A DNA stretch of 42,936 bases from a bacterium. Lineage in GTDB: Bacteria > Patescibacteriota > Patescibacteriia > JACQSD01. The translations under genes were made by a program, and so were the position numbers. Below the pieces are notes generated by a model. The model searched no databases and had not been told where the DNA came from. It worked only from the letters and a program-made list of their open reading frames with translations. The DNA lies in assembly GCA_030648795.1 (NCBI GenBank), contig JAUSHC010000022.1, positions 1-42,936 of the forward strand, in the 5' to 3' direction. Shown in pieces: positions 10,300 to 31,224 of the stretch. Within the stretch, counting starts at the first letter, position 1, and every line of letters begins with the position of its first letter.

Positions 10300-11388
10300 A
10301 TGCGACGCATACTTCTTCTGACTCTCGAGTATCCTCCTGATCGCGGGGGGGTTGCGCGATATTACGGTGGGCTCGTTGGCGCCATGCCCGCGGGCTCTGT
10401 TGTTGTGATGCGCGCGAGACTTTCACGTTGGATCTGGCCACGGTGGTTGCCATTGCTGTGGCAAGTGTGGCGAACAGTGCGTCGTGAAAAGATTACCGAA
10501 ATCTGGGGCGGGCATTTGCTTCCCCTTGGTACGGTTGTGTACCTATTAAAAAAATTACTTACTACAAACTACAAACTACAAACTACAGTATTCGTGCACG
10601 GCTATGATCTTCTGCTCGCCGAAACCCATCCGCGAAAACGAATGATCGCTCGACGCATTTTGAATTCCGCGGATCGCATTGTGACGAACAGTGAATATGG
10701 GAAAAGTTTGGTTGTCGCTCGAGGTATTTCGGAAGCGAAAGTGACTGTCGTGTATCCTTGTCCTACCGCGGTTTTCTCCCCCTTTGCAAGGGGGAGTGAG
10801 AGGGGGTTGAGAGAACGTTATCATCTCGAAGACAAAAAAATTCTCTTGACCGTGGCGCGTTTAGTAGAACGAAAGGGGATTGATTTGGTGTTGGAGGCGC
10901 TGAAAAAAATAGATAATCCCAACATCGTATATGTGATTATTGGTGACGGGCCGGAAAAAGAAAAATTAAACTTACAACTTACAACTTACAACTTATCCGC
11001 CTTACTTGTTGGCGCAGTTTCTGATAAAGCACTTTCTATGTGGTACGCGTTGTGTGACGTATTTATTATGACGCCACGAAAGATTGGTCCGGATGTGGAA
11101 GGATTCGGGCTTGTGTACCTTGAAGCGAATGCATTTGGGAAGCCGGTGATTGGCTCGCGTACCGGTGGCGTTCCGGAGGCGGTCGTGGATGGCGAAACCG
11201 GATTGCTTGTAAACGAAGGTGATGTTGATGGTATTGCGAAAGCGATCGAGCGATTATTTTCAGATGACGCATTGCGAAAAAAACTTGGCGAACAAGGTCG
11301 TACGCGGGTAGAGCAAGAGTTTCAGTGGGAGACACAGGCACAGATATTGTTCGAGCGTAGTCGAGAACTTCCTTTTGGAGAGGGGTGA
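10300..11388 (+). CDS. Glycosyltransferase family 4 with three in-frame mini-inserts
   Basis: YPPDRGGV, VARLVERKG, EGFGLVYLEA, GGVPEAV. Confidence 0.93.
   Translation: MRRILLLTLEYPPDRGGVARYYGGLVGAMPAGSVVVMRARLSRWIWPRWLPLLWQVWRTVRREKITEIWGGHLLPLGTVVYLLKKLLTTNYKLQTTVFVHGYDLLLAETHPRKRMIARRILNSADRIVTNSEYGKSLVVARGISEAKVTVVYPCPTAVFSPFARGSERGLRERYHLEDKKILLTVARLVERKGIDLVLEALKKIDNPNIVYVIIGDGPEKEKLNLQLTTYNLSALLVGAVSDKALSMWYALCDVFIMTPRKIGPDVEGFGLVYLEANAFGKPVIGSRTGGVPEAVVDGETGLLVNEGDVDGIAKAIERLFSDDALRKKLGEQGRTRVEQEFQWETQAQILFERSRELPFGEG
10561..10587 (+). repeat. Heptamer tandem repeat (ACTACAA)x3.9, in frame
   Basis: Encodes TTNYKLQTT. Confidence 0.85.
10776..10808 (+). repeat. In-frame hairpin element
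   Basis: ctccccctt-tgc-aagggggag then tgagagggggtt; encodes SPFARGSERGL in the GT-B interdomain linker. Confidence 0.7.
10970..10995 (+). repeat. Heptamer tandem repeat (ACTTACA)x3.7, in frame
   Basis: Encodes NLQLTTYNL. Confidence 0.85.
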
Positions 11389-11712: not shown

Positions 11713-12456
11713 ATGCCAGTGACAATCAGCATCATCATTCCAACCTATAATCATCGTGTGGCGCTTGAAAAGTGTCTTGCGAATATTGCGGTTCAGACGT
11801 TTAGGGATTTCGAAGTGATTGTGGTGGATGATGGCTCGACGGATGGAACAAATGAGTGGCTACAAGCCATGAAGAATCATGAATTAGGAATTAGGAATTA
11901 TGGAAAAGATCTCCCTGATTCATTATTCATTATTCATAATTCGTCCAACAAAGGCGCTCCTGCCGCCCGCAACGCAGGTTTGCAAAAAGCAAAAGGGGAG
12001 TATATTCTTTTTTGCGACGCGGATGTTGTGATGCAACCGAACATGTTGCAGAAAATGTACGACGCATTGCAAGCGCATCCGGAAGCGTCGTATGCGTACT
12101 CGTCATTTACATTCGGATGGAAAAAATTTATACTTTGGCCGTTTGATGGCGAGAAGTTACAGCGCATGCCATATATCCATTCCACGTCACTCATTCGGCG
12201 CGTGCATTTCCCCAAAGTCGGTTGGGATGAATCGTTGAAACGTTTACAAGACTGGGATTTATTTTTAACGATGTTAGAGGAGGGGCATACAGGCGTTTGG
12301 ATTCCTGATATACTGCTTACTATTACCGTACGCCGTGGTGGTATTAGTAACTGGCTACCATCATTTCTCTATAAATTTCCGTTTTTACCGAGCGTGAAAA
12401 AATATAAAGCGGCAGAGTCGATTGTTCGTAAGAAACATAAAATTTCAATGTTATGA
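11713..12456 (+). CDS. Glycosyltransferase family 2
   Basis: ISIIIPTYN, VVDDGSTDGT, ARNAG, FCDAD, LQDWD. Confidence 0.93.
   Translation: MPVTISIIIPTYNHRVALEKCLANIAVQTFRDFEVIVVDDGSTDGTNEWLQAMKNHELGIRNYGKDLPDSLFIIHNSSNKGAPAARNAGLQKAKGEYILFCDADVVMQPNMLQKMYDALQAHPEASYAYSSFTFGWKKFILWPFDGEKLQRMPYIHSTSLIRRVHFPKVGWDESLKRLQDWDLFLTMLEEGHTGVWIPDILLTITVRRGGISNWLPSFLYKFPFLPSVKKYKAAESIVRKKHKISML
11874..11942. repeat. Heptamer-built hairpin insert, copy 1 (in frame)
   Basis: gaatcat gaattag gaattag gaattat .. ctgattc attattc attattc ataattc; 69 nt. Confidence 0.85.
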
Positions 12457-12487
12457 GGTCGGACCTCGTAATGGAGATCCGACCTCG
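12454..12487. repeat. REP-like doublet of 15-nt quasi-palindromes
   Basis: tgaggtcggacctcg-taat-ggagatccgacctcg, overlapping the GT2 stop codon. Confidence 0.65.
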
Positions 12488-12496
12488 ACAGTTTGC

Positions 12497-14047
12497 ATGA
12501 AAAAGTTTTTTTCTTTTTTTTGGGGCATTGTTCGATCCTACGGCGAGTCGTTTGTTGAAGCGATCGGGGAGAATGAATACACGCAGGAGTTCAAAGAGCG
12601 CTATCCGCGCGTCTTTCGTTTTGTAAAAAATCGTTTATCGCCGCGCGAATATCTTGGACTCCATCTCACTATCGGATTTTTTATTGCGCTTTATCTCACC
12701 AATCAATGCATCGAGCTCATTACCTCCATTGTCCGCAATACGGAGCTTGCACAGATTGATGTCAACATCATCACGTTTCTCACCGCGACGCGAACGGGCG
12801 TTCTCATGAAGCCTATGTTTTTTTTCACGGCACTTGGCAACTGGCCGACGATTGCATTGTTTTTTCTTTTTTTCGCAACACTGTGGATTTGGCAGAAGCG
12901 GTGGTTTCGCGTGTGGATGCTTTTTTTAACCATGGCTGGAAGCGAAGCGATCGCCATACTCATGAAAATTTTTATTGCGCGTCCACGACCGGATTCTGCA
13001 GGCGCGCTCCTTCTTGAAACAACCTATAGCTTTCCGTCGGGGCATGCGCTTATTGCGCTGTCATTTTACGGATTCCTTACATACATATGGTTGCGCGAGC
13101 GACGACATATTGTGACGCGTATCGTCATATTTCTTTTTGCGGCTTTCACTATAGTGGGAGTGGGGGTGAGTCGCATTTATCTTGGTGTGCATTGGCCGTC
13201 GGATGTGCTTGGCGGGTATCTTCTTGCGCTTATCTGGTTGACCGTCATTGCGACTGCCGCTGACCTGCGAAAACGTTTTGTGCGTGAGCGGCACTATCCG
13301 ACAGAAACACTTTTTCCTTTTCGATGGATTGCCCCTCTGCTTATTGTATTCGGATCGGCTGTGTTGGTGTATGTTGTCGCGTTTGTTGCGCGTCCGCATT
13401 TTGAGCCGTCGGCGTTGCATCGGCATATTGATATTACCGGGACGGAGAGCGCCACTTCTCTTGACGCCGCAATGTTAGACAACCTCCCAAATATAAGCGA
13501 AGGGTTGACCGGGCGTTCGCTCGAACCGGTGAATCTCATTTTTATTGGCAATGCAGAGGAAGTGGACAGCGCCATGACAAAGGCAGGATGGTTTCTTGCG
13601 GAACAAGTGACACTCAAATCGTCTTGGGATATTTTTCTTCGGGTACTCCGGAACAGATCATATCCGACCGCCCCGGTATCTCCCGCATTTTTGTATGATC
13701 GACCGCAAGATAGCGCGTGGCAAAAGCCGACGGAAAAAAATTCTCCGCGTGAACGCCACCATATTCGTTTGTGGCGTGATGAGCGCTATACAATTGATGG
13801 CAAGGCGCTTTGGGTGGGGACCGCAAGCTTTGACGCGGGTATACGACTTACAGCGACCATACGGATTCCCACGCATCGCATCGCGCCGGCGATTGATGTG
13901 GAACGGGATCTCGTGGTGAGTGACTTGCGGCGTGTTGGAGCGATTCAAAAAGAAGAATCGGTGCAGCGCTATGATCCATTTCTAGGGGTTAATGCGATTG
14001 GAGATCAGTTTTTCACCGATGGGAAGGCGGTGATTCTATCCCTATGA
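12497..14047 (+). CDS. PAP2 phosphatase fused to an LssY-like C-terminal domain
   Basis: KIFIARPRP, SFPSGH, SRIYLGVHWPSD; EPVNLIFIG, RHHIRLW; ATG 12497. Confidence 0.88.
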   Translation: MKKFFSFFWGIVRSYGESFVEAIGENEYTQEFKERYPRVFRFVKNRLSPREYLGLHLTIGFFIALYLTNQCIELITSIVRNTELAQIDVNIITFLTATRTGVLMKPMFFFTALGNWPTIALFFLFFATLWIWQKRWFRVWMLFLTMAGSEAIAILMKIFIARPRPDSAGALLLETTYSFPSGHALIALSFYGFLTYIWLRERRHIVTRIVIFLFAAFTIVGVGVSRIYLGVHWPSDVLGGYLLALIWLTVIATAADLRKRFVRERHYPTETLFPFRWIAPLLIVFGSAVLVYVVAFVARPHFEPSALHRHIDITGTESATSLDAAMLDNLPNISEGLTGRSLEPVNLIFIGNAEEVDSAMTKAGWFLAEQVTLKSSWDIFLRVLRNRSYPTAPVSPAFLYDRPQDSAWQKPTEKNSPRERHHIRLWRDERYTIDGKALWVGTASFDAGIRLTATIRIPTHRIAPAIDVERDLVVSDLRRVGAIQKEESVQRYDPFLGVNAIGDQFFTDGKAVILSL

Positions 14048-14065
14048 ATTTCTAACGGGACGGGG

Positions 14066-14141
14066 TTCACCCCGTTAGAAGCCGCCCTGCCAACGGCAGT
14101 GCTACAGGCACCTCGGGGCGCCTTGCCTCTAACGGGGTTCA
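14066..14141. mobile_element. MITE-like 68-nt element, copy 1 (intergenic)
   Basis: TTCA-ccccgttaga...tctaacgggg-TTCA; 60/68 identical to the copy at 17349. Confidence 0.75.
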
Positions 14142-14194
14142 CAACACAGAAAAAAAAGAGTATGATAAAAGCATTCTAATCTCTCTACATATTT

Positions 14195-15313
14195 ATGCCT
14201 CCAGCAAAATCTATTTTTACCCACGGCGGTGTTGCGCAGTCATCAGAGAAGAAAGAAGTCAAGGAAGCACAGAAAGCGGGTATCTGCGTTGTTTTGAAAA
14301 AGCGCGATAAGTCCTTTTTGCGGCATCATGCGGATACGCCGGAGGAGTGTCTCCCGGTGCTTGCCACTGCTCATCTTTCATGGGTCGATTTTGCCGTTGA
14401 GGACGTGTATCGCGATGGAAAGGTGATCGCAAAAACGTTTGGGTTCTCTAATGAGCTCGTCGGACGTATTCTCTCTGATGACAAGTCAAACTATTATGAT
14501 TTTAATGAAGAATTCGGCATGCGCTTTCCTTCGGTGCGTGTTGATAAATTGAACGTGGAGGTTATTCCTTTGGCAATCTTTGTGCATAAAGGACTCGTAC
14601 TTACGATACACGCAGAGACGTCCAATCGTCTTGTAAAATTCTCTCGATATGCAGATAGTTTTTTTCAGAAAATTCCAAAAGAGGCAGGAGAGCCTGAACA
14701 GCTGACAATCCTCCTTGCCCGTATCATTAACGAAAATAATGATCGAAACTTTGATTATCTTCGGGATCTTGAAGAGCAAGGTGACGCGCTTTCATCACAG
14801 CTCGTGAAAAATGAGATAGAGCGGGAAAAGGTGGGGCAAGACGTCTATCGCATGAAGCATGCGCTTATCCGCTATTTGGATACGCTTTGGGTGAGCCTTG
14901 ATGTTATTAGCGCACTGCGACATGGCGATCCGAATTTATTGACGAACGATAAAGAAATTTTGCGACAGTTTACACTCATGGCGGATGATATAAACCGTCA
15001 GATCCAGCTTTCAGAACATATGTCTTCCGTACTTGTTTCGGGATTAGAAGTCATGCAAACGATTTACAACAATCAATTGCAGGTATTGAATAATCGCATG
15101 ACGCACGTGATGACATGGTTGACGGTACTTGGCACTGCGGTGTTGGTGCCGAATACGCTTGCAACGGTGATGAGTTCACTTTCTGATTTACAGCCGATGC
15201 ATCATCTTTGGTATATTTCTATTCTTGTCCTTTCGACTCTTGTGTCGACTGTCGGCGCGTATTGGTGGGTGAAAAATAAGGCGCGCTTACCGGCAAAGAT
15301 GAAAGAAGAATAA
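14195..15313 (+). CDS. CorA-family divalent cation transporter
   Basis: SWVDF, VLTIH, long coiled stalk, NNQLQVLNNRMTHVMTWLT and two C-terminal TM helices; GMN absent. Confidence 0.8.
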   Translation: MPPAKSIFTHGGVAQSSEKKEVKEAQKAGICVVLKKRDKSFLRHHADTPEECLPVLATAHLSWVDFAVEDVYRDGKVIAKTFGFSNELVGRILSDDKSNYYDFNEEFGMRFPSVRVDKLNVEVIPLAIFVHKGLVLTIHAETSNRLVKFSRYADSFFQKIPKEAGEPEQLTILLARIINENNDRNFDYLRDLEEQGDALSSQLVKNEIEREKVGQDVYRMKHALIRYLDTLWVSLDVISALRHGDPNLLTNDKEILRQFTLMADDINRQIQLSEHMSSVLVSGLEVMQTIYNNQLQVLNNRMTHVMTWLTVLGTAVLVPNTLATVMSSLSDLQPMHHLWYISILVLSTLVSTVGAYWWVKNKARLPAKMKEE

Positions 15314-15318
15314 TCATT

Positions 15319-16335
15319 ATGTCGCAACCTATTTTCGATCAAAAAATTATTCTCGTCACCGGAGGCGCTGGATTTATCGGTTCTTTCTTGTGCGAAGAGC
15401 TTGCAAAGAACGCTACAGTAATTTGCGTTGATAATTTTGTATCGGGATCGCAGACGAACATCGACGCGCTTTTCCGCAATCCGAATTTCATTTTTTTGAA
15501 GCACGATTTGCGCGAGCCATTTGATCCGGAAGCGTTTCCGGAACTTGAACGCCTGAAGATTAAATTTCAAGGAATTCAAGAGATTTATCATCTTGCGTGT
15601 CCGACATCGCCGAAAGAATTTGATAAATATAGAATTGAAACACTTGAAGCAAATTCCGTAGTAATGAAGCACGTGCTTGATCTGGCAGTGAAGTACAAAT
15701 CGAAAGTCGTGAATGCGTCATCGTCGGTTGTATACGGTCCGCGTCCAGAAGAAAATGCGTTTTTTGTTGAAGAGTATCTTGGTTCGGTTGATTTTTTAAG
15801 TCCGCGTGCGTGCTATGACGAAGGAAAGCGGTTTACGGAAACCATGGTTGCCACCTATGCGCAAGTGCATGGTGTTGATGGGAAGAATGCACGTATCTTT
15901 CGAACGTATGGTCCGCGCATGCGTTTGTTTGATGGGCAAATGATTCCCGATTTTATTACAAACGCGCTCGACGGAAAAGATCTGGTGATTTATGGTGACG
16001 AAACATTTTACACATCGCTTGTGTATGTGACGGATGTGGTGGAGGGACTCGTAAAACTTATGGCAGCGCCGAAAGATATCGGTTCAGTGAATATTGGTTC
16101 GGATCAAGATTTAAAATTAGCAGAGGTTGCAAAAATGATTATTGAGTTGACGAAATCTTCTTCGAAAGTTGCATTTGAAGAGCCGCTTCTTTTCATGACG
16201 CCGCTCGGGCTTCCGGATCTTACGAAAGCGAAAGAGCGTTTGGGCTGGATTCCGATTGTGACATTGGGGCAAGGGCTTACAAAGACGATTGAATATACCA
16301 TGGCGAACAAAACAATATTAGGGATGCGCTCGTAG
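15319..16335 (+). CDS. UDP-glucuronate decarboxylase-like NAD-dependent epimerase/dehydratase
   Basis: TGGAGFIGS, IYHLACPTSP, RACYDEGKR, ARIFRTYGPRM. Confidence 0.92.
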   Translation: MSQPIFDQKIILVTGGAGFIGSFLCEELAKNATVICVDNFVSGSQTNIDALFRNPNFIFLKHDLREPFDPEAFPELERLKIKFQGIQEIYHLACPTSPKEFDKYRIETLEANSVVMKHVLDLAVKYKSKVVNASSSVVYGPRPEENAFFVEEYLGSVDFLSPRACYDEGKRFTETMVATYAQVHGVDGKNARIFRTYGPRMRLFDGQMIPDFITNALDGKDLVIYGDETFYTSLVYVTDVVEGLVKLMAAPKDIGSVNIGSDQDLKLAEVAKMIIELTKSSSKVAFEEPLLFMTPLGLPDLTKAKERLGWIPIVTLGQGLTKTIEYTMANKTILGMRS

Positions 16336-16344
16336 AGATTCTGT

Positions 16345-17022
16345 ATGAAACGTGTCGCGGTGATTCCTGCGTATAATGAAGAACGAACGATAGGGACGGT
16401 GCTTTCCGAGCTCCGTCCGTTTGTGGATGCCATGATTGTGATCGACGATGGGTCACGTGACGCAACTGCGGCGATTGCAGAGCGCGAAGGTGCGATCGTT
16501 TATCGACATTTTTTAAATCGTGGGTTGGGGGCGGCATTGGGGACTGGCATGGAAGTTGCGCTGCGCCAGGGTGCTGATGTTCTTATTACGTTTGATGCGG
16601 ATGGACAGCATCGCGCGAACGATATTCCTGCAATCGTTGCTCCACTACTCCGTGGTACGGCAGACGTTGTTATTGGTGTGCGCACAAAAAATAAGCATGC
16701 GATGCCTGTCGGAAGGCGCATCGCGAATACGATGGCGAATGTCATTACTTTTTTTCTTTTTGGTATTTGGACGTCGGACAGTCAGTCAGGGTTTCGCGCG
16801 TTTACGTCCCAAGCGGCAAGAGCGCTGGATCTCGCGCGCTATCATTTTGAGAATATGGAAGTATCGAGTGCAATTCTTTCTCAAGTTGCGCGCCATAAAC
16901 TTCGTTTTTTTGAGGTGGCGATCGAGCCTGTCTATACGTCCTATTCACTTTCAAAAGGGCAGGGATTTCGTGAAGGGATTCGGACGTTTGTTCGTTTAAT
17001 TATCTATCGCGTTCTCCACTGA
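16345..17022 (+). CDS. Glycosyltransferase family 2 (DPM1-like polyprenol-phosphate glycosyltransferase)
   Basis: IPAYNEE, DDGSRD, FDADGQH, DSQSGFRAF. Confidence 0.92.
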   Translation: MKRVAVIPAYNEERTIGTVLSELRPFVDAMIVIDDGSRDATAAIAEREGAIVYRHFLNRGLGAALGTGMEVALRQGADVLITFDADGQHRANDIPAIVAPLLRGTADVVIGVRTKNKHAMPVGRRIANTMANVITFFLFGIWTSDSQSGFRAFTSQAARALDLARYHFENMEVSSAILSQVARHKLRFFEVAIEPVYTSYSLSKGQGFREGIRTFVRLIIYRVLH

Positions 17023-17357
17023 TGCTTATTCAATACCTTCTTATTCTTTTTGTCTTTTTTGCGTTGTCCCGAGTGGTGATGCGCGCGAAGGCACATGAAA
17101 TAACGACGCGCGAATTTTTATTTTGGTTCTTTTTTTGGTTGTGTGCGGCGATCGTCATTGCATGGCCGAATAGTTTGAATCGCTTTGCGGATGTTCTTGG
17201 CGTCGGGAGGGGGGTTGATGTCGTACTGTACGCTGCACTCGTGATTCTTTTTTATGTGGTGTTCCGTATTTTTACTCGCATCGAACGGATCGAACGCGAT
17301 ATCACGTTGCTTGTTCGGCGAAAGGCGTTAGAAGAAAACGACCATGAACCCCGTTAG
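17022..17357 (+). CDS. DUF2304 family membrane protein
   Basis: LGVGRGVD, IERDITLLVR; typical partner of DPM1-like GT2. Confidence 0.85.
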   Translation: MLIQYLLILFVFFALSRVVMRAKAHEITTREFLFWFFFWLCAAIVIAWPNSLNRFADVLGVGRGVDVVLYAALVILFYVVFRIFTRIERIERDITLLVRRKALEENDHEPR

Positions 17358-18567
17358 AAGCCGCCCTGCCAAAGGCACGGCTACGGCCGCCTCGGGGCGC
17401 CCTGCTTCTAACGGGGTGAACCCCGCTAAGATTTCTGTTGTTCTTCTTACATACAATGGGAAGAAGTATCTTCCTGATTTATTCGCAAGCCTGCAAAAGA
17501 CTGCGTGCGCGTATCCATGGCAATTGATTGTCGTGGATAATGCGTCGACGGATGGCACAGCCGAGTGGCTTACGAATTATGAATCAGGAATTAAGAATCA
17601 GGGGGATCGTCAACTCCATAATTCATTATTCATAATTCATAATTCTACTAACGCGGGTTTTGCCGCCGGCAACAATGTCGGTATCCGTAAAGCGCTTGCA
17701 GACGGCGCAGAGTACGTTGTTCTTTTGAATCAAGATACGGTTGTGGATCCGAATTGGCTCACAGAACTTGTTGTAGCCGCGGAAAGCGACGAAACTATTG
17801 GTGCCGTGCAGGCGCGACTCATGCTTTGGGATAAAAAAGATACAGTAAACTCCCTCGGCAACGAGATTCACTTTCTCGGCTTTGGGTATACGAGTGGATA
17901 TAAAAAAACTTATGCCGCCTACGGACGGCACCCCGTCAACGGCGGTGGCAACTTAACCGCCTACCGGATAGGCAGGCAACTTACAACTGACAACTATCCA
18001 GAGATCACCTACGCCTCCGGCGCCGCTGTCTTATACCGCGCAAAAGCACTCCGCGAGGTCGGGCTCTTCGATGAGTCGCTTTGGATGTATCACGATGATT
18101 TGGATCTTGGATGGCGACTCTGGCGCGCGGGATGGAAAAATGTTTTAGCACACGTATCCGTTGTTTACCACAAATACGAATTTTCGCGGAGCATTAAAAA
18201 ATATTATTTCATGGAACGCAATCGTTTTTTGGTGTTGTTTGAGAATTATTCGTTGCGAACGCTCGTACTGATCGCTCCTGCGCTCGTCGTGATGGAGCTT
18301 GGACTTTTTGTGAAAGCGATTGTGTCGGGGTGGGGGAAGGAAAAACTGCGGGCGTATGCGTATTTTTTTCAACTTTCGGCATGGCGAATGGTTTTAGAAA
18401 AGCGCAAAGAGAAACAGAAATTTTTCCGTTGTCCCGAACGAGAATTGTTAGCGCGCTTTACGGGCGTGATTGCATTTCAAGATCTGCAAAGCTCCGTGCT
18501 TACGTATATCGCAAATCCGATATTTAATGCGTATTGGCAGATCATCCAATATATACTTCGAGTGTAG
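17344..18567 (+). CDS. Glycosyltransferase family 2 (WbbL/rhamnosyltransferase-like) with three in-frame inserts
   Basis: VDNASTDGT, GFAAGNNVG, LLNQD, GLFDE, YHDDLDLGWR; start may be the GTG at 17416. Confidence 0.92.
   Translation: MNPVRSRPAKGTATAASGRPASNGVNPAKISVVLLTYNGKKYLPDLFASLQKTACAYPWQLIVVDNASTDGTAEWLTNYESGIKNQGDRQLHNSLFIIHNSTNAGFAAGNNVGIRKALADGAEYVVLLNQDTVVDPNWLTELVVAAESDETIGAVQARLMLWDKKDTVNSLGNEIHFLGFGYTSGYKKTYAAYGRHPVNGGGNLTAYRIGRQLTTDNYPEITYASGAAVLYRAKALREVGLFDESLWMYHDDLDLGWRLWRAGWKNVLAHVSVVYHKYEFSRSIKKYYFMERNRFLVLFENYSLRTLVLIAPALVVMELGLFVKAIVSGWGKEKLRAYAYFFQLSAWRMVLEKRKEKQKFFRCPERELLARFTGVIAFQDLQSSVLTYIANPIFNAYWQIIQYILRV
17345..17420. mobile_element. MITE-like 68-nt element, copy 2 (in frame at the GT2 N-terminus)
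   Basis: TGAA-ccccgttagaag...cttctaacgggg-TGAA; encodes NPVRSRPAKGTATAASGRPASNGV. Confidence 0.75.
17574..17645. repeat. Heptamer-built hairpin insert, copy 2 (in frame)
   Basis: gaattat gaatcag gaattaa gaatcag .. ataattc attattc ataattc ataattc; 72 nt. Confidence 0.85.
17907..17996 (+). repeat. Composite insert: CAACTTA-type heptamers interrupted by two GC-rich hairpins
   Basis: aactta-tgccgcc..ggtggca-acttaa-ccgcctaccggataggcagg-caacttacaactgacaacta. Confidence 0.7.
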
Positions 18568-18583
18568 TCGAGAAGTACATTTT

Positions 18584-19603
18584 ATGAAACATTCCGTCAT
18601 CGAAAATCCTTTCGCTCCAGAAAAACAGCGCAGTTCCGACGACTCTGCTTTTGTTGGGAAGATTTTGGGTGCGGAAGCGGAAGCTGCGATGCGGAAAGCA
18701 GTAGGAAAGACAGAGGTGCAGGAACCCGAGCCAGCGACAGACCTTGATCTTACAGACGCCGAGCATGTGCGAGCTGAACAAGAGAGGCGAGAACGTTCTT
18801 CAGAATGGAAAATGGAACACGCGCGGAAAGAGCTTTGTGCATGGGCGGAGGAGATTGGAAAAGATGCTGATTGGGCTCTCGAAACCTTTACCATCCACAC
18901 TGACGGCACGCTTACGGTAGAAGGGGATTTGGATCTCACGCATCTTCCGGTGACGCATCTCCCCAAAGGATTGCGAGAGGTTGGAGGAATCCTTGGTCTC
19001 GGAATGACGAAAATTATTTCCATTGAAGGGTTTCCGGAAAAGGTTGGTGGGGATGTTGATCTTACGGGAGTTCAAATTATTTCTCTTAAAGGTTTTCCGC
19101 AGACTATCGGTGGCAATATTTTTCTTGCGGATACTAGAATAAAATCTCTCCATGGACTGCCAAAAAAAATTGAAAAAGATCTTCATCTTTCGCGTACTGA
19201 TATTGCATCCTTGAGAGGTCTTCCGCAAAACATTGGCGGTAGTCTTTATCTTGATGGTGTTACAACTCTTATGTCTCTTGATGGATTGCCGGAAAGGATT
19301 CCTGGAGATCTTAGTCTTTACTGGTCTCTCGTCTCTTCCCTTCACGGATTATCCAAGGAAATTGGAGGGGATCTTGATCTACGAGGCACGAGCATCACTT
19401 CTCTTGACGGACTTCCTCTGCCTGAAAATATTGGAGGGAAGGTACTTCTTTTTACTCAACAACAGGATGCACTTATTAGTGTAGTGGGAAAAGACGATGA
19501 TTATTATGGTATATATGATATAGACGACAAGACGGATGTTGAACGGACGGATGATGAACGGACTCGAGAGGAGGCAAATAAACCAGAGGATCGACTTTAT
19601 TGA
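18584..19603 (+). CDS. Leucine-rich-repeat-like protein with 22-aa GGDLDL repeats
   Basis: About 8 repeats of IGGxLxLxxTxIxSLxGLPxx; ATG 18584. Confidence 0.8.
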   Translation: MKHSVIENPFAPEKQRSSDDSAFVGKILGAEAEAAMRKAVGKTEVQEPEPATDLDLTDAEHVRAEQERRERSSEWKMEHARKELCAWAEEIGKDADWALETFTIHTDGTLTVEGDLDLTHLPVTHLPKGLREVGGILGLGMTKIISIEGFPEKVGGDVDLTGVQIISLKGFPQTIGGNIFLADTRIKSLHGLPKKIEKDLHLSRTDIASLRGLPQNIGGSLYLDGVTTLMSLDGLPERIPGDLSLYWSLVSSLHGLSKEIGGDLDLRGTSITSLDGLPLPENIGGKVLLFTQQQDALISVVGKDDDYYGIYDIDDKTDVERTDDERTREEANKPEDRLY

Positions 19604-19611
19604 AAAATTTT

Positions 19612-20793
19612 ATGCGCATCGCTCATCTCGTTTCCACGTTTCCTCCCTACTATGGTGGCATGGGCAATGCCGTATTTGGCATGGCGCAGGAATCGGCGAA
19701 GCGCGGGCACGAGGTGACGGTGTTAACGGCGAAGCAGGAATCAGGAATAAGGAATAAGGGAGATCGATCCATAATTCCTAATTCATTATTCATAATTCGA
19801 AGATTGCGTTCGTTCGGCCGATGGGGCAACGCCGCGTTCCTTCCCCAACTTTTTTGGATGCTTGATGATTACGACATTGTGCATCTGCATTACCCGTTTT
19901 TTGGCGGGGCGGAAGCTGCAGCACTTTGGCGCGCATCGCAGTTAAAACGAGGGCGGCAGCTTGTCGTCACGTATCACATGGATGCGATCGCCGACGGATG
20001 GCTTGGTCGTGTGTTCGCGTGGCACAATCGTTTCATTCTTCCCTCCATTCTTTCTTTAGCGGATCGAATCATCGTGACATCGTTCGATTATGCAGAACAT
20101 TCTTTGCTGAAGCAGTACGAATCACGCGTGAAAAATAAGATGGTAGAGATTCCATTAGGTGTTGATACCGAGCGTTTTACGCCTCGAGAAAAGGACGCAG
20201 AACTATTACGACAGCACAAGATTGATCCGGCATCATTTACATTGTTGTTTGTTGGCGGGCTTGATCGCGCACATGCATTTAAAGGCGTCGAAGTGTTGAT
20301 CCGTTCGTTTAAACTTTTTTCAGAATTTCAACATGTGGATGATAGGAGAGCACATACGCTCGTCATCGTCGGTGATGGCGCCCTTCGACCATCGTATGCT
20401 GCGCTTGCGCTTGAGCTTGGAATACAGGATAAAATTGTATTTACCGGTCGTGTTGCGCCTGATGATCTTCCGCGGTATTATGCGACTGCGGATTGTGTTG
20501 TACTACCATCGATAAACCAGTCAGAAGCTTTTGGTATGACAATTCTTGAGGCAATGGCTTGTGGAAGACCGGTAATTGCATCGCTTCTTCCGGGTGTGAG
20601 GAAGCTTGTTCTTGACCGGAGGACGGGCTTATTTGCGAAGCCGAGCGATATTGTTGGTCTTGCGAAAGTCATCGCAGTAATTGCTGATGATCCCGAACTT
20701 CGCGTACGATACGGCAATGCGGGAAGAGAGCGAGCACTTGATCGATATACATGGAGCGCCGTGGGAGAGGAGTTGGAGCGAGTGTATCGATAA
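19612..20793 (+). CDS. Glycosyltransferase family 4
   Basis: FPPYYGGM, HLHYPF, FVGGLD..FKG, SEAFGMTILEAMACG; ATG 19612. Confidence 0.93.
   Translation: MRIAHLVSTFPPYYGGMGNAVFGMAQESAKRGHEVTVLTAKQESGIRNKGDRSIIPNSLFIIRRLRSFGRWGNAAFLPQLFWMLDDYDIVHLHYPFFGGAEAAALWRASQLKRGRQLVVTYHMDAIADGWLGRVFAWHNRFILPSILSLADRIIVTSFDYAEHSLLKQYESRVKNKMVEIPLGVDTERFTPREKDAELLRQHKIDPASFTLLFVGGLDRAHAFKGVEVLIRSFKLFSEFQHVDDRRAHTLVIVGDGALRPSYAALALELGIQDKIVFTGRVAPDDLPRYYATADCVVLPSINQSEAFGMTILEAMACGRPVIASLLPGVRKLVLDRRTGLFAKPSDIVGLAKVIAVIADDPELRVRYGNAGRERALDRYTWSAVGEELERVYR
19731..19798. repeat. Heptamer-built hairpin insert, copy 3 (in frame)
   Basis: gaagcag gaatcag gaataag gaataag .. ataattc ctaattc attattc ataattc. Confidence 0.85.
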
Positions 20794-20797
20794 ATAT

Positions 20798-21468
20798 ATG
20801 CGTATCTGTCTTATCAGCAATCTTTATCCTCCCTATACTCGTGGCGGGGCGGAGCGGGTGGTTGCAACGATTGCGAAGGAATTGCAACGCGCAGGGCATA
20901 GCGTGATCGTGATCACAACCGTGCCATCGTTTGCGGCGAATATAAAGGCGCTTGCGTCTGGTGGGTTTCTTCATGAAACGGTTGACGGCATCACCGTGTA
21001 TCGCATCGCAACCGCGAACCTTTTTCCGTACTGGACCATTGGCGAACATAATGTTGTGATGCGTTTCATTTGGCATGTGTTTGATATGTTTGCCTTTGAA
21101 ACCGCAGCAACAGTACGTCGCATTTTGCGAAAAGAAAAAGCGGACGTGGTGATGACGCACAATTTGAAGGGGATTGGGTTCTTGGTCCCGCGGGCGATTC
21201 GACGTCTTGGTATTCGGCATATTCATACGGCACACGATGTCCAGCTTGCAGTGCCTTCCGGTCTCATTTTTGTTAGGCAGAAACCGGTGTTCATTCTTTT
21301 GTTCCTTATGCAGTGGTATGAGCGATTGACGCGCTGGCTTATCGGTTCGCCGGACGTGGTCGTCTCACCATCGCAATGGCTCCTTGATTTTTATACCGAA
21401 CGAGGATTTTTTTCGCAGTCCAAAAAAGTTGTCTTGCATAATCCGATTTTACAAGGGGCACCCTTGCA
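20798..21468 (+). CDS. Glycosyltransferase family 4, N-terminal domain only, cut by the fold point (the ORF reads on to 21598 in mirrored sequence)
   Basis: SNLYPPYTRGGAE, HTAHD, VSPSQW, VLHNPI; no C-terminal ExF-type motif. Confidence 0.85.
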
Positions 21469-21485
21469 TGCAAGGGTGCCCCTTG
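21452..21485. repeat. REP-like doublet of 15-nt quasi-palindromes at the symmetry centre
   Basis: caaggggcacccttg-catg-caagggtgccccttg. Confidence 0.65.
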
Positions 21486-22143: not shown

Positions 22144-23325
22144 TTATCGATACACTCGCTCCAACTCCTCTCCCACGGCGCTCCATGTATATCGATCAAG
22201 TGCTCGCTCTCTTCCCGCATTGCCGTATCGTACGCGAAGTTCGGGATCATCAGCAATTACTGCGATGACTTTCGCAAGACCAACAATATCGCTCGGCTTC
22301 GCAAATAAGCCCGTCCTCCGGTCAAGAACAAGCTTCCTCACACCCGGAAGAAGCGATGCAATTACCGGTCTTCCACAAGCCATTGCCTCAAGAATTGTCA
22401 TACCAAAAGCTTCTGACTGGTTTATCGATGGTAGTACAACACAATCCGCAGTCGCATAATACCGCGGAAGATCATCAGGCGCAACACGACCGGTAAATAC
22501 AATTTTATCCTGTATTCCAAGCTCAAGCGCAAGCGCAGCATACGATGGTCGAAGGGCGCCATCACCGACGATGACGAGCGTATGTGCTCTCCTATCATCC
22601 ACATGTTGAAATTCTGAAAAAAGTTTAAACGAACGGATCAACACTTCGACGCCTTTAAATGCATGTGCGCGATCAAGCCCGCCAACAAACAACAATGTAA
22701 ATGATGCCGGATCAATCTTGTGCTGTCGTAATAGTTCTGCGTCCTTTTCTCGAGGCGTAAAACGCTCGGTATCAACACCTAATGGAATCTCTACCATCTT
22801 ATTTTTCACGCGTGATTCGTACTGCTTCAGCAAAGAATGTTCTGCATAATCGAACGATGTCACGATGATTCGATCCGCTAAAGAAAGAATGGAGGGAAGA
22901 ATGAAACGATTGTGCCACGCGAACACACGACCAAGCCATCCGTCGGCGATCGCATCCATGTGATACGTGACGACAAGCTGCCGCCCTCGTTTTAACTGCG
23001 ATGCGCGCCAAAGTGCTGCAGCTTCCGCCCCGCCAAAAAACGGGTAATGCAGATGCACAATGTCGTAATCATCAAGCATCCAAAAAAGTTGGGGAAGGAA
23101 CGCGGCGTTGCCCCATCGGCCGAACGAACGCAATCTTCGAATTATGAATAATGAATTAGGAATTATGGATCGATCTCCCTTATTCCTTATTCCTGATTCC
23201 TGCTTCGCCGTTAACACCGTCACCTCGTGCCCGCGCTTCGCCGATTCCTGCGCCATGCCAAATACGGCATTGCCCATGCCACCATAGTAGGGAGGAAACG
23301 TGGAAACGAGATGAGCGATGCGCAT
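22144..23325 (-). CDS. Glycosyltransferase family 4 (mirror copy)
   Basis: Mirror of 19612-20793. Confidence 0.85.
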   Translation of the reverse strand: MRIAHLVSTFPPYYGGMGNAVFGMAQESAKRGHEVTVLTAKQESGIRNKGDRSIIPNSLFIIRRLRSFGRWGNAAFLPQLFWMLDDYDIVHLHYPFFGGAEAAALWRASQLKRGRQLVVTYHMDAIADGWLGRVFAWHNRFILPSILSLADRIIVTSFDYAEHSLLKQYESRVKNKMVEIPLGVDTERFTPREKDAELLRQHKIDPASFTLLFVGGLDRAHAFKGVEVLIRSFKLFSEFQHVDDRRAHTLVIVGDGALRPSYAALALELGIQDKIVFTGRVAPDDLPRYYATADCVVLPSINQSEAFGMTILEAMACGRPVIASLLPGVRKLVLDRRTGLFAKPSDIVGLAKVIAVIADDPELRVRYGNAGRERALDRYTWSAVGEELERVYR

Positions 23326-24369: not shown

Positions 24370-25593
24370 CTACACTCGAAGTATATATTGGATGATCTGC
24401 CAATACGCATTAAATATCGGATTTGCGATATACGTAAGCACGGAGCTTTGCAGATCTTGAAATGCAATCACGCCCGTAAAGCGCGCTAACAATTCTCGTT
24501 CGGGACAACGGAAAAATTTCTGTTTCTCTTTGCGCTTTTCTAAAACCATTCGCCATGCCGAAAGTTGAAAAAAATACGCATACGCCCGCAGTTTTTCCTT
24601 CCCCCACCCCGACACAATCGCTTTCACAAAAAGTCCAAGCTCCATCACGACGAGCGCAGGAGCGATCAGTACGAGCGTTCGCAACGAATAATTCTCAAAC
24701 AACACCAAAAAACGATTGCGTTCCATGAAATAATATTTTTTAATGCTCCGCGAAAATTCGTATTTGTGGTAAACAACGGATACGTGTGCTAAAACATTTT
24801 TCCATCCCGCGCGCCAGAGTCGCCATCCAAGATCCAAATCATCGTGATACATCCAAAGCGACTCATCGAAGAGCCCGACCTCGCGGAGTGCTTTTGCGCG
24901 GTATAAGACAGCGGCGCCGGAGGCGTAGGTGATCTCTGGATAGTTGTCAGTTGTAAGTTGCCTGCCTATCCGGTAGGCGGTTAAGTTGCCACCGCCGTTG
25001 ACGGGGTGCCGTCCGTAGGCGGCATAAGTTTTTTTATATCCACTCGTATACCCAAAGCCGAGAAAGTGAATCTCGTTGCCGAGGGAGTTTACTGTATCTT
25101 TTTTATCCCAAAGCATGAGTCGCGCCTGCACGGCACCAATAGTTTCGTCGCTTTCCGCGGCTACAACAAGTTCTGTGAGCCAATTCGGATCCACAACCGT
25201 ATCTTGATTCAAAAGAACAACGTACTCTGCGCCGTCTGCAAGCGCTTTACGGATACCGACATTGTTGCCGGCGGCAAAACCCGCGTTAGTAGAATTATGA
25301 ATTATGAATAATGAATTATGGAGTTGACGATCCCCCTGATTCTTAATTCCTGATTCATAATTCGTAAGCCACTCGGCTGTGCCATCCGTCGACGCATTAT
25401 CCACGACAATCAATTGCCATGGATACGCGCACGCAGTCTTTTGCAGGCTTGCGAATAAATCAGGAAGATACTTCTTCCCATTGTATGTAAGAAGAACAAC
25501 AGAAATCTTAGCGGGGTTCACCCCGTTAGAAGCAGGGCGCCCCGAGGCGGCCGTAGCCGTGCCTTTGGCAGGGCGGCTTCTAACGGGGTTCAT
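24370..25593 (-). CDS. Glycosyltransferase family 2 (mirror copy)
   Basis: Mirror of 17344-18567. Confidence 0.85.
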   Translation of the reverse strand: MNPVRSRPAKGTATAASGRPASNGVNPAKISVVLLTYNGKKYLPDLFASLQKTACAYPWQLIVVDNASTDGTAEWLTNYESGIKNQGDRQLHNSLFIIHNSTNAGFAAGNNVGIRKALADGAEYVVLLNQDTVVDPNWLTELVVAAESDETIGAVQARLMLWDKKDTVNSLGNEIHFLGFGYTSGYKKTYAAYGRHPVNGGGNLTAYRIGRQLTTDNYPEITYASGAAVLYRAKALREVGLFDESLWMYHDDLDLGWRLWRAGWKNVLAHVSVVYHKYEFSRSIKKYYFMERNRFLVLFENYSLRTLVLIAPALVVMELGLFVKAIVSGWGKEKLRAYAYFFQLSAWRMVLEKRKEKQKFFRCPERELLARFTGVIAFQDLQSSVLTYIANPIFNAYWQIIQYILRV

Positions 25594-30480: not shown

Positions 30481-31224
30481 TCATAACATTGAAATTTTAT
30501 GTTTCTTACGAACAATCGACTCTGCCGCTTTATATTTTTTCACGCTCGGTAAAAACGGAAATTTATAGAGAAATGATGGTAGCCAGTTACTAATACCACC
30601 ACGGCGTACGGTAATAGTAAGCAGTATATCAGGAATCCAAACGCCTGTATGCCCCTCCTCTAACATCGTTAAAAATAAATCCCAGTCTTGTAAACGTTTC
30701 AACGATTCATCCCAACCGACTTTGGGGAAATGCACGCGCCGAATGAGTGACGTGGAATGGATATATGGCATGCGCTGTAACTTCTCGCCATCAAACGGCC
30801 AAAGTATAAATTTTTTCCATCCGAATGTAAATGACGAGTACGCATACGACGCTTCCGGATGCGCTTGCAATGCGTCGTACATTTTCTGCAACATGTTCGG
30901 TTGCATCACAACATCCGCGTCGCAAAAAAGAATATACTCCCCTTTTGCTTTTTGCAAACCTGCGTTGCGGGCGGCAGGAGCGCCTTTGTTGGACGAATTA
31001 TGAATAATGAATAATGAATCAGGGAGATCTTTTCCATAATTCCTAATTCCTAATTCATGATTCTTCATGGCTTGTAGCCACTCATTTGTTCCATCCGTCG
31101 AGCCATCATCCACCACAATCACTTCGAAATCCCTAAACGTCTGAACCGCAATATTCGCAAGACACTTTTCAAGCGCCACACGATGATTATAGGTTGGAAT
31201 GATGATGCTGATTGTCACTGGCAT
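30481..31224 (-). CDS. Glycosyltransferase family 2 (mirror copy)
   Basis: Mirror of 11713-12456. Confidence 0.85.
   Translation of the reverse strand: MPVTISIIIPTYNHRVALEKCLANIAVQTFRDFEVIVVDDGSTDGTNEWLQAMKNHELGIRNYGKDLPDSLFIIHNSSNKGAPAARNAGLQKAKGEYILFCDADVVMQPNMLQKMYDALQAHPEASYAYSSFTFGWKKFILWPFDGEKLQRMPYIHSTSLIRRVHFPKVGWDESLKRLQDWDLFLTMLEEGHTGVWIPDILLTITVRRGGISNWLPSFLYKFPFLPSVKKYKAAESIVRKKHKISML

Follow-up and report, generated by a model that had tools for sequence, protein, structure and literature searches.

In-frame heptamer hairpins in glycosyltransferase genes of a Candidatus Uhrbacteria contig as probable gene-less copies of an intervening sequence-type cassette

One intervening sequence (IVS) of 23S rRNA is described as having a 28-bp terminal stem, tandem heptamers ahead of the S23p start codon and excision by RNase III (PMC4990558), and PF05635 ORFs have been described in rRNA insertions of CPR bacteria (PMC11270868); the PF05635 family is termed functionally uncharacterised in both accounts (PMC11270868, PMC4990558). 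The hairpins reported here resemble the 23S rRNA IVSs in their terminal inverted repeats of ~28 nt, made of about four heptamers, in the PF05635 ORF that occupies the loop of full-length copies with its start codon beside or inside the repeats, and in the existence of both ORF-bearing and ORF-less forms. They differ in that the copies in the window, by which we mean the whole analyzed stretch of 42,936 nt, are in protein-coding genes, lack an ORF and are only ~69 nt long, and in that their stems are imperfect (20–22 of 28 positions) and, to judge from the sequence, they are apparently translated and not cut out.

Rickettsia palindromic elements (RPEs) are described as palindromic selfish DNA of ~150 bp that occurs in frame in many unrelated genes of Rickettsia and encodes a conserved peptide, which is considered to be tolerated by the fold of its host protein (PMC10969869). 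The present element is likewise an in-frame palindrome with a conserved peptide in unrelated genes, but it is a heptamer-built element of Patescibacteria, ~69 nt long, with a full-length form that bears a gene. To our knowledge, neither a heptamer substructure nor an associated gene has been reported for RPEs. MITEs are similar in being short inverted-repeat elements with many copies and a longer, gene-carrying form with the same ends, and a comparison can be made with REP/RAYT systems, in which short inverted repeats also have a longer form with a gene between the ends. In contrast to both, the present system has no transposase or RAYT-type nuclease and no target-site duplication was seen; its associated gene encodes a small non-catalytic helical bundle, and its arms are tandem arrays instead of one unique repeat. 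The STRR sequences of cyanobacteria are intergenic tandem heptamers of genome-specific sequence and unexplained function. Four-helix-bundle genes of cyanobacterial plasmids were found in this study to lie between inverted heptamer arrays, and no published work was found that links STRR sequences with either four-helix-bundle genes or insertions in coding sequence. Heptanucleotide contingency repeats, such as those of NeuO and HMW1A, also place 7-nt units in or beside genes for surface structures, but as long, perfect, one-directional arrays of variable number, whereas the present units are degenerate, inverted, arranged 4+4 and also found in housekeeping genes. No description of the present element was found in the literature covered, which excluded subscription journals.

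Architecture of the hairpins and their host genes

The contig is from Candidatus Uhrbacteria (Patescibacteria), a tiny groundwater-type bacterium. At 42936/42936 positions the window is identical to its reverse complement, a perfect palindrome that is artefactual, and its unique sequence amounts to 21.5 kb. Because the second half mirrors the first, there are only three independent copies of the hairpin (Table 1). Hairpins served as the pivot of this fold-back contig. An Rfam search of the window gave no family at the hairpins and no rRNA match, with sub-threshold miRNA-like matches at the artefactual center only.

As proposed in a preliminary description of this DNA, each hairpin comprises four GAATNAK units, a loop that includes GATC, and four inverted units, and the units vary while the 7-nt period is kept. 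In the 24 units, positions 1, 2, 3, and 6 are invariant (24/24) and position 4 is T in 23, whereas position 5 is variable (C6/T12/A6), as is position 7 (T13/G10/A1). The arms are complementary at 21/28, 22/28, and 20/28 positions in hairpins 1, 2, and 3, respectively, with nearly all of the mismatches at unit positions 5 and 7. The 28+28 nt arms, which form a stem in the RNA folds, and the four tandem heptamers in each arm are both features of IVS cassettes. RNA folding gave z values of −2.24, −5.11, and −3.68, with 2, 0, and 0 of 200 shuffles folding as well, and DNA folding gave z values of −1.22, −4.00, and −3.09. A search of the window for two-unit patterns found 36 matches, 18 of them in the mirror half, as compared with 0.90 expected, and none of 100 shuffles reached 36. 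The three copies have in common an 18-nt stretch of the right arm and a GG..GATC..CC apex. Compensatory change is seen at two apical pairs only; the arms tell nothing by covariation, as their paired positions are invariant. The fixed positions of the unit are spread over all three positions of the codon, so that the constraint acts on the nucleic acid, and conservation is at the level of nucleotides and not of codons.

Table 1. Positions of the hairpins, their parts, their host genes and their mirror images in the window
Feature	Position	Strand	Description
GT2a host gene	11713..12456	+	247 aa, Glycos_transf_2; element is residues 55-77
Hairpin 1	11874-11942	+	69 nt, in GT2a gene
Hairpin 1 left arm	11874..11901	+	GAATCAT GAATTAG GAATTAG GAATTAT
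Hairpin 1 loop	11902..11914	+	13 nt, GATC and GGA/TCC mini-stem
Hairpin 1 right arm	11915..11942	+	Four inverted units; encodes DSLFIIHNS, aligned with β3 of solved GT2 structures
GT2b host gene	17344..18567	+	407 aa as ORF; database form 383 aa
Hairpin 2	17574-17645	+	72 nt, in GT2b gene
Hairpin 2 left arm	17574..17601	+	Four GAATNAK units
Hairpin 2 loop	17602..17617	+	16 nt, with GATC
Hairpin 2 right arm	17618..17645	+	Encodes HNSLFIIHNS, commonest form among other host proteins
GT4b host gene	19600..20793	+	397 aa from TTG; database form from ATG at 19612
Hairpin 3	19731-19798	+	68 nt, in GT4b gene
Hairpin 3 left arm	19731..19758	+	First unit GAAGCAG
Hairpin 3 loop	19759..19770	+	12 nt, GGAGATCGATCC
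Hairpin 3 right arm	19771..19798	+	Last unit overlaps TAATTCGA, common to orthologue L001, which has no element of this family here
Hairpin 3 mirror image	23139..23206	-	Artefactual second half; non-independent
Hairpin 2 mirror image	25292..25363	-	Artefactual second half; non-independent
Hairpin 1 mirror image	30995..31063	-	Artefactual second half; non-independent

The host genes were identified as two GT2 enzymes and one GT4 enzyme, in agreement with the preliminary description, and its translations in a common frame and orientation (NHELGIRNYG-DSLFIIHNS, NYESGIKNQG-NSLFIIHNS, and QESGIRNKG-NSLFIIRR) were reproduced. In two copies, none of the other five frames is free of stops, and in the third only one other is; the common frame is unremarkable because nearly all of the other frames hold stop codons. 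The consensus of the encoded peptide is ..E[SL]GI[KR]N..HNSLFIIHNS. GT2a and GT2b are 40% identical over 125 aa, the element included, and share the right junction before N.G, which bears out the equivalent position claimed for the two hairpins. The further proposal that the SLFIIHNS arm takes the place of a native β-strand is consistent with the alignment of PDSLFI with β3 of a solved GT2 structure. In the same alignment, the net gain in the length of GT2a is 11–12 aa and not 23, and over the three sites in the window the net gain is +8 to +15 aa, which is less than the length of the element, so that plain insertion needs an additional deletion or overwriting step. Each host protein is the only member of its database cluster. 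All heptamer runs in the window are within glycosyltransferase genes; these include GT4a, which has two perfect runs of four units, one of which replaces a helix without a change in length.

Four-helix-bundle genes between heptamer arms

The association of heptamer runs with four-helix-bundle genes, which the preliminary description had put forward, is borne out by gene-bearing cassettes, and the arms of the window hairpins belong to the same family as the arms of these cassettes. In L032, a PF05635 (23S_rRNA_IVP/S23p) gene at 12032-12421 (E 2e-38) is flanked by a GAATNAK arm and an inverted arm, which pair, with G.U wobble, in both the MFE and the centroid RNA folds. Among the 120 best homologues of its protein product, 75 start with M[ND][QHNYKE][EG][SLAP] (MNQESG..-type) and 95 end with [IMLF][IM].[NDE]S (..IIHNS-type), both of which are encoded by the arms. 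Many four-helix-bundle homologues are on contigs of 570–1500 nt. All five of the four-helix-bundle genes found in the Patescibacteria loci are located between inverted arrays of short units, about four in number, as are 8/10 genes sampled from plasmids of other phyla (10 genes fetched out of 35 records). Inverted heptamer arrays flank four-helix-bundle genes on plasmids of Nostoc, Calothrix, Anabaena, Geminocystis, and Stanieria, and in an Azospirillum plasmid (L087) the four-helix-bundle cassette is inside LSU rRNA (511 bits), where it is a classical 23S rRNA intervening sequence with arms of tandem heptamers.

The window copies have loops of 12–16 nt with no PF05635 ORF between the arms, and their hosts are GT2, GT2, and GT4 genes instead of the tip of a 23S/16S rRNA helix; a tblastn search of the 21.5 kb of unique sequence in the window found no four-helix-bundle gene (best E 0.2). 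The preliminary description suggested that the hairpins may be empty sites of four-helix-bundle genes. Their arms do match those of the gene-bearing form, but the solo hairpins, each with its own apical part, are better termed ORF-less copies; they are not simple deletions of the ORF because the conserved GG..GATC..CC apex is missing from the L032 cassette. No transposase-like gene is associated with the hairpins, no target-site duplication was seen by eye and no direct repeat flanks the three window copies, so that mobility is inferred from distribution alone. The two features that would mark a MITE, a target-site duplication and a transposase-encoding relative, are thus both missing, and the gene-bearing form encodes a four-helix bundle.

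Heptamer runs are not confined to such cassettes. Of 29 small ORFs that adjoin heptamer runs, two encode four-helix bundles, 10 encode DUF2304 proteins and the rest are ordinary genes; with only 2/29 of the adjoining ORFs, most heptamer runs are not beside a four-helix-bundle gene. In the loci, ORFs with heptamer runs on both sides include DUF2304, HIT, GtrA, and HU genes, recognized by their start sequences and with families confirmed by Pfam, and since ordinary small genes are also flanked in this way, the runs are not only cassette arms. In the window and 80 loci, which were chosen around a glycosyltransferase cluster, there are 66 runs of period 7 as compared with 21, 22, and 26 of periods 5, 6, and 8, making period 7 2.5–3 times more common.

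Unrelated host proteins and orthologous sites

A search with a 42-column profile, made from four hairpin peptides with 9-aa flanks from four different hosts, matched 86 proteins. By a strict pattern, 58 of the 81 new proteins from outside the window have both halves of the peptide, 14 have the right half only and nine have neither. The element is spread over unrelated hosts: from database Pfam labels, these represent ~30 unrelated families of Patescibacteria and include TrmD, SecA, RecG, ValRS, MnmA, cysteine desulfurase, TsaD, and pilins. One protein has four copies and four have two. In TrmD, the element is a clean 23-aa insertion relative to the solved structure, and alignments of MnmA and of cysteine desulfurase (four copies) with solved structures show gaps opposite the element. 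The same hairpin is also found in intergenic DNA. A single order of unit variants (HNSLFIIHNS) recurs in these peptides, which appears to argue for copying of a master sequence and not for fresh addition of generic units, although the 86-protein search was seeded by exact 5-residue words, which inflates this apparent uniformity. An unseeded search of representative sequences with the 42-column profile gave only 21 matches at E<=0.001, a number that is no measure of abundance because a motif of ~24 residues is too information-poor for a database of 1.8 billion proteins.

Among orthologues, the hairpins are present, absent, or replaced. Of the GT4 homologues, 26 were aligned out of 119 non-self homologues listed, and only four of the 26 (P0008, P0009, P0013, and P0014) have the motif; it is lacking in the three closest full-length homologues (81, 81, and 73% identity). 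At the GT4 site, a perfect palindrome from another family is seen in the syntenic L001, a decayed GAATNAK hairpin in L024 and 12 CGGWAGT units in L074. The GT2b site has other hairpins in L001 and L024 and a plain segment in 6/8 of the best orthologues inspected, with L030 being 15 aa shorter. Repeated insertion, which the preliminary description suggested alongside templated repeat addition, fits these other hairpins and plain loops at orthologous sites and the ~30 unrelated Pfam families that carry the peptide. An ancestral glycosyltransferase segment was rejected as an explanation since, at the GT4 and GT2b sites, plain loops or other hairpins are what the nearest orthologues have; neither a conserved ancestral peptide encoded without 7-nt periodicity nor a restriction of the element to these three genes, the outcomes named beforehand as contrary to the proposal, was found.

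Origin of the hairpins

We consider the three hairpins to be solo copies, lacking the ORF, of a selfish cassette of the IVS type, with a probability of about 0.78. The full-length cassette would consist of about four heptamers, a four-helix-bundle gene (PF05635, 23S_rRNA_IVP/S23p, Avd-like) and about four inverted heptamers, which is the architecture of the classical 23S rRNA intervening sequences, and in Patescibacteria one very large family with GAATNAK units would have the start and stop codons of the ORF within its arms. The gene-less version (28 nt, a loop of ~13 nt and 28 nt, giving ~69 nt or 23 codons) may have spread into the loops of many unrelated protein genes and would survive only in the single stop-free reading frame, in which the places for a potential stop codon are unit positions 5 and 7. 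The translated product is predicted to comprise a polar turn (N-Y-E-S-G-I-K-N-x-G) and, after it, a hydrophobic strand (N-S-L-F-I-I-H-N-S). The strand part probably occupies the position of the native β3 of the Rossmann-like domain in the three window glycosyltransferases, and the net gain would therefore be only 8–15 residues. The imperfect stems and intact frames suggest that the window copies are not excised from the transcript, and we infer translation of the element instead of its removal. The four-helix-bundle protein presumably recognizes the repeat units.

A structure in RNA or DNA that serves the host gene, such as an RNase III site, a pause in translation between β2 and β3 or a protein-binding cruciform, with incidental coding, would account for the presence of some hairpin, of unrelated sequence, at the orthologous sites of the window, L001, and L024, for RNA folds better than those of shuffles, for the compensatory change at two apical pairs and for the G.U wobble in L032, which points to RNA. 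This is improbable, however, as the hairpin is missing from these sites in more distant orthologues and is found both in intergenic DNA and, across ~30 families, at structural positions unrelated to one another, the mostly mismatched positions 5 and 7 leave helices of only 4 bp, and there is no matching Rfam family. Somewhat less probable again is phase variation by slipped-strand mispairing of contingency repeats in surface-polysaccharide genes, in which a change in unit number would switch genes on or off because 7 is not divisible by 3. The confinement of the window runs to glycosyltransferase genes, including the two perfect GT4a runs, the excess of period-7 runs, the difference in heptamer number between strains described for one 23S rRNA IVS (PMC4990558) and the heptanucleotide phase variation described in other bacteria are in its favor, but enrichment in glycosyltransferase genes cannot be judged from loci picked around a glycosyltransferase cluster, on/off switching is implausible in housekeeping hosts such as TrmD, SecA, ValRS, RecG, MnmA, cysteine desulfurase, and TsaD, and degenerate units, only four per arm, are a poor substrate for slippage.

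The overlap of the last unit with native codons common to L001 (TAATTCGA), the resemblance of the native β3 consensus I-x-N to ATTCATAAT and the GT4a run that takes the place of a helix at unchanged length are what would be expected of a local origin, in which native codons underwent slippage or fold-back repair, with the likeness between copies arising by convergence. We regard this as very unlikely, and local convergence is disfavored because dozens of unrelated hosts, and also the ends of four-helix-bundle ORFs, show the specific unit order that encodes HNSLFIIHNS, and the three window copies share the 18-nt right-arm stretch and the GG..GATC..CC apex. That the hairpins arose in assembly or amplification is suggested by the window itself, since its 42936-nt palindrome is an artefact, but the chance of this is negligible: the hairpins are well within the unique half, the three ORFs are kept intact, and the hairpins were found again in independent public assemblies and protein sets. 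An artefact is therefore refuted for the hairpins, whereas the fold-back of the contig remains one.

The solo-cassette interpretation could be extended to a single widespread mobile system of PF05635 proteins (S23p/IVP and relatives of Avd, a protein of diversity-generating retroelements) and 7-nt arrays of about four units, a proposal that, taken as a whole with all of its parts jointly, is speculative and on balance doubtful. In such a system, each subunit of a pentameric ring would read one unit, and the arms and protein would diversify together. It would colonize rRNA helices, as in the classical IVSs, and operon spacers, such as those of cas6/cas4 or between ribonucleotide reductase subunits, and its ORF-less hairpins would enter the coding sequences of dozens of Patescibacteria protein families, overwriting loops and strands rather than merely interrupting them. 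The in-frame hairpins, the tandem heptamers of cyanobacteria and the intervening sequences of rRNA, which have long lacked an explanation, would then be footprints of one machine.

The PF05635 four-helix-bundle family gains a concrete and testable partner in short repeat arrays of matching sequence, and the rRNA intervening sequences can be tied to a broader class of cassettes outside rRNA. Protein-coding palindromes, until now a peculiarity of Rickettsia, appear to have remodeled many housekeeping and surface proteins of Patescibacteria, organisms that are known almost solely from metagenomes. For annotation and assembly, the consequence is that predicted proteins acquire N-terminal extensions and 20-aa inserts from the hairpins, which probably also break contigs, to judge from the short contigs of many four-helix-bundle homologues.

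Organization of the hairpins and of the surrounding DNA

The three hairpins reported in the preliminary description match at all of their sites, and each comprises four GAATNAK units, a loop of 12–16 nt that includes GATC, and four inverted units. As described there, the ORFs that carry them encode two family-2 glycosyltransferases (GT2a and GT2b) and one of family 4 (GT4b). Among the 24 units, positions 1, 2, 3, and 6 are invariant and position 4 differs once; position 5 is C, T, or A in 6, 12, and 6 units, and position 7 is T, G, or A in 13, 10, and 1. The two-unit pattern has 36 matches in the window as compared with 0.9 expected, a number reached in 0/100 shuffles, but half of these are mirror-image duplicates and the independent hairpin copies number three. 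All three copies fold better as RNA than shuffled sequences (z values of −2.2, −5.1, and −3.7). Since positions 5 and 7 of paired units seldom match, the fold is limited to four 4-bp GAAU/AUUC helices and an apical stem of 3 bp; overall, 21, 22, and 20 of 28 arm positions are complementary. The common reading frame and orientation noted earlier hold for all three copies and need no special explanation, since the other frames mostly contain stops: the frame used is the sole stop-free frame of six in two hairpins and one of two in the third. Conservation follows the period of 7 and the mirror symmetry, with fixed bases at all three codon positions; the constraint, or the recent copying, is therefore at the level of the nucleic acid and not of the peptide. 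The variable positions are those at which stops could arise in the frame used (TNA, KGA, NAK), which is consistent with selection for an open frame.

The window is its own reverse complement, with 0 mismatches over 42936 positions, and thus comprises 21468 unique bases and their mirror image. This palindrome (centre 21468/21469) is almost certainly artefactual, the result of fold-back during assembly or amplification, so that every feature in 21469–42936 is a duplicate. The unique half begins with genes for glycosidase-like and CofD-like proteins, ribosomal proteins S13, S11, and S4, RpoA, and ribosomal proteins L17, L13, and S9; next come an ABC transporter, a flippase, and the polysaccharide cluster, in the order GT4a, GT2a, PAP2/LssY, CorA, epimerase, a small GT2, DUF2304, GT2b, an unassigned ORF, GT4b, and GT4c. 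All repeat elements found in the window lie within or beside genes of this cluster. The named GT4 homologues are from Candidatus Uhrbacteria and other Patescibacteria.

Positions of repeat elements and associated features in the window and in related loci
Feature	Position	Unit, stem or arm	Encoded peptide or remark
Window, hairpin 1	11874–11942	GAATNAK	in GT2a
Window, hairpin 2	17574–17645	GAATNAK	in GT2b
Window, hairpin 3	19731–19798	GAATNAK	in GT4b
Window, G+C-rich palindrome	8549–8579	AACACTCGGTGTTG	after ABC transporter
Window, G+C-rich palindromes	10274–10294; 12451–12486	GAGGTCGGACCTC	after flippase and after GT2a; bracket the GT4a-GT2a pair
Window, GT4a	10300–11388		
Window, GT4a heptamer run 1	10561–10587	ACTACAA	LLTTNYKLQTT; opposite a 4-aa gap versus PimB' (3oka)
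Window, GT4a hairpin of third family	10776–10813	CTCCCCCTT / AAGGGGGAG	stem followed by TGAGAGGGGGTT
Window, GT4a heptamer run 2	10969–10995	CTTACAA	LNLQLTTYNLS; helix replaced, length unchanged versus PimB' (3oka)
Window, DUF2304/GT2b inverted repeat	17348–17417	ACCCCGTTAGAAGC..	
Window, GT2b tandem stretch	17977–17995	CAACTGA × 2.7	..RQLTTDNYPE.., in a long loop
Window, 377-aa ORF	18470–19603		between GT2b and GT4b
Window, fold-back pivot	21449–21488	TACAAGGGGCACCCTTG	in GT4c
L001, GT2b site	about 4150–4215	third hairpin family	
L001, GT4b site	5328–5371	TACAAGGGGCACCCTTG	perfect palindrome
L001, GT4c site	8080–8114		perfect palindrome
L003, GT2b counterpart	5231–5258	GAATNAK type	single arm
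L032, PF05635 gene	12032–12421	GAATNAK	
L074, GT4b site	3664–3764	CGGWAGT	SRKSVVGSRKSEVG..

Orthologous sites and mode of insertion

The encoded peptide could be a conserved ancestral glycosyltransferase segment, and orthologous sites were compared in 80 loci, the result of one scan of species-representative genomes selected around one gene cluster. Synteny between locus L001 and the window extends from PAP2 through GT4c. The L001 GT4b site holds a perfect palindrome of another family: homology of the two DNAs stops at GTGTTRAC and resumes at TAATTCGA, with an intervening block of 66 nt (window) or 51 nt (L001), in each case a whole number of codons. The GT4b site of L024 (55% identity) holds a GAATNAK hairpin whose right arm has decayed, and that of L074 holds twelve units of a different sequence, which follow β2 and are translated in frame. 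The GT2b site is occupied by other hairpins in L001 and L024 and by a plain helix-strand segment in six of the eight best orthologues inspected, and is 15 residues shorter in L030. Among the 26 of 119 listed non-self GT4 homologues that were aligned with the window protein, the motif is missing from the three closest full-length sequences (81, 81, and 73% identity) and is present at the same place in four more distant ones (P0008, P0009, P0013, and P0014). With other hairpins or none in the GT4b and GT2b orthologues, the hairpin segment is, by these sequence comparisons, not ancestral. That orthologous sites hold unrelated hairpins could mean that a few loops are tolerant or that the elements home to existing hairpins.

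The alignments with solved structures bear on insertion as opposed to replacement. The GT2a segment PDSLFI aligns with strand β3 of chondroitin synthase, and the target gaps opposite NHELGIRNYGK are only 11–12 residues, indicating a net gain of about half of the element; the gain is 15 residues in GT2b and about 8 in GT4b as compared with typical orthologues. In TrmD (P0150), 23 residues form a clean insertion between two neighbouring residues of a solved protein; the four copies in a metagenomic cysteine desulfurase of 457 residues (P0126) are all opposite gaps in solved homologues, as is the one aligned copy of two in MnmA (P0132). By these alignments the element is basically an insertion of ~69 nt (28+13+28, a multiple of three), and at the glycosyltransferase sites native residues have also been lost or overwritten, at insertion or later. 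The four copies in P0126 add about 75 residues relative to solved homologues.

Copies in other proteins and four-helix-bundle cassettes

In a profile search based on four hairpin peptides, whose 9-residue flanks were heterogeneous, 86 proteins longer than the query were found. A strict pattern found both halves in 58 of 81 new non-window proteins, the right half only in 14, and neither in 9; by a looser pattern, 68 proteins have at least one full copy, which is at the extreme N terminus in 15, often before a pilin signal. Copies therefore occur outside the genes in which the element was first described, in about 30 families as counted from precomputed Pfam labels, including GT2, GT4, class-V aminotransferase, MnmA, SecA, RecG-type helicases, type IV pilins, prepilin peptidase, DHH, TrmD, PMT-type transferases, UvrC, ValRS, P-type ATPase, RadA, MutY, UppP, KsgA, FolC, and radical-SAM proteins. 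All source names given are Patescibacteria, Parcubacteria, Uhrbacteria, or "bacterium". Because the search was seeded by exact 5-residue words, HNSLFIIHNS looks more uniform than it is; a search of cluster representatives without seeding yielded only 21 matches at E ≤ 0.001, and new among them were TsaD and PMT proteins, each with two copies, one PP2C protein, and long arrays of (NQESGIR)n. In the DNA of the loci, GAATNAK triplets (≤2 mismatches) number 55 as compared with 6, 9, and 14 in shuffles, and include an intergenic hairpin (L003) and single arms in other ORFs.

The link with four-helix-bundle genes that the preliminary description suggested is borne out by L032, in which a PF05635 gene (23S_rRNA_IVP; E 2e-38) has GAATNAK units to its left and the inverted complement of these units to its right. 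The ORF starts within the left arm (VNQGIRRIK) and ends within the right (KTIIHNS-stop); MFE and centroid folds both show the arms paired. When this protein was used as the query, 7993 of 8000 scored candidates had E ≤ 0.001. The best 120 homologues (70–99% identity), many of them on contigs of 570–1500 nt, include 62 of exactly 129 residues; 75 start with M[ND][QHNYKE][EG][SLAP], 95 end with [IMLF][IM].[NDE]S, and 49 end exactly with IIHNS. tblastn added three such genes from the loci; it detected none in the window. All five genes in the loci have inverted arrays of about four units, which are GAATNAK in L032, CAAAATG in L019, and the octamer GATTAWTR in L012, L020, and L026. The 29 small ORFs adjoining heptamer runs in the loci comprise 2 PF05635, 10 DUF2304, and otherwise ordinary genes.

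A tblastn search of plasmids gave 35 records, mostly from Nostoc and Calothrix. Ten were fetched for taxonomic spread; their genes have inverted heptamer-type arrays in eight cases, a one-sided array in one, and, in Pseudanabaena, direct arrays of 14 and 9 units on the two sides. Several are wedged into an operon: between cas6 and cas4 in Pseudanabaena and Anabaena, between cas10 and cmr3 in Picosynechococcus, and between the ribonucleotide reductase β and α subunits in Nostoc; that of Azospirillum is inside LSU rRNA (511 bits) and is therefore a classical intervening sequence. One arm family is common to the genes of Stanieria and Nostoc PCC 7120, whose proteins are 80% identical, and units differ between protein pairs at 45–51% identity. 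Passages of PMC4990558 describe a 23S rRNA intervening sequence with a 28-bp terminal stem, an S23p start codon preceded by three tandem heptamers and a degenerate fourth, a repeat number that differs among strains, and excision by RNase III, and a related S23p that is a homopentameric ring. According to PMC11270868, rRNA insertions of CPR bacteria contain 23S_rRNA_IVP ORFs, whose domain is described there as uncharacterised.

The window hairpins are probably ORF-less members of the GAATNAK branch of a four-helix-bundle cassette family, presumably translated where they lie in host genes. One order of unit variants runs through the hosts and the ends of the four-helix-bundle ORFs, and this recurrence speaks for copies of a master sequence and against new templated addition of generic units. 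The apex of solo hairpins, GG..GATC..CC, is conserved and has no equivalent in the L032 cassette; these hairpins are therefore a separate lineage and not simple deletions. How copies move, and any role of the four-helix-bundle protein, we can only infer; that the units per arm, about four or five, agree in number with a pentameric ring is no more than suggestive. The element resembles Rickettsia palindromic elements, as treated in parts of PMC10969869, in mechanism of persistence and S23p-type intervening sequences in anatomy. Unlike the latter, the window hairpins are outside rRNA and have no ORF in the loop, and because these are two defining features the element is classed as a variant, not a member, of that group. 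A search of the literature outside subscription journals found no description of it.

Other repeats in the cluster and in related loci

Tandem runs of period 7 number 66 in the 80 loci and the window, as compared with 21, 22, and 26 for periods 5, 6, and 8 (2.5–3 times commoner). Their units are genome-specific, and many form inverted pairs in intergenic DNA (L040, L056, L067, and L073). GT4a contains two perfect in-frame runs of four heptamers that are not mutually complementary and a hairpin of a third family, also translated in frame, which in L001 fills the GT2b site where the window has GAATNAK. The inverted repeat of 29 nt at the DUF2304/GT2b junction, perfect in its outer 14 nt, encodes a 27-residue N-terminal extension of GT2b that is absent from L001; heptamer hairpins flank DUF2304 at the equivalent place in L003 and L056. 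The L003 counterpart of the GT2b CAACTGA stretch is shorter. The 377-residue ORF shares about 100 nt with the end of GT2b. It is missing from L001, none of the 80 loci contains a relative, and no Pfam family matches it above the cut-off. The loci, retrieved with the Patescibacteria-type GT4, include one of a Methanosarcina genome (L054, 42% identity). The fold-back pivot is a real palindromic element; its arm is identical in the palindrome at the L001 GT4b site, a different gene in a related genome, and the palindrome at the L001 GT4c site is related to but distinct from it. The small G+C-rich palindromes at gene ends may be terminators or another repeat family.
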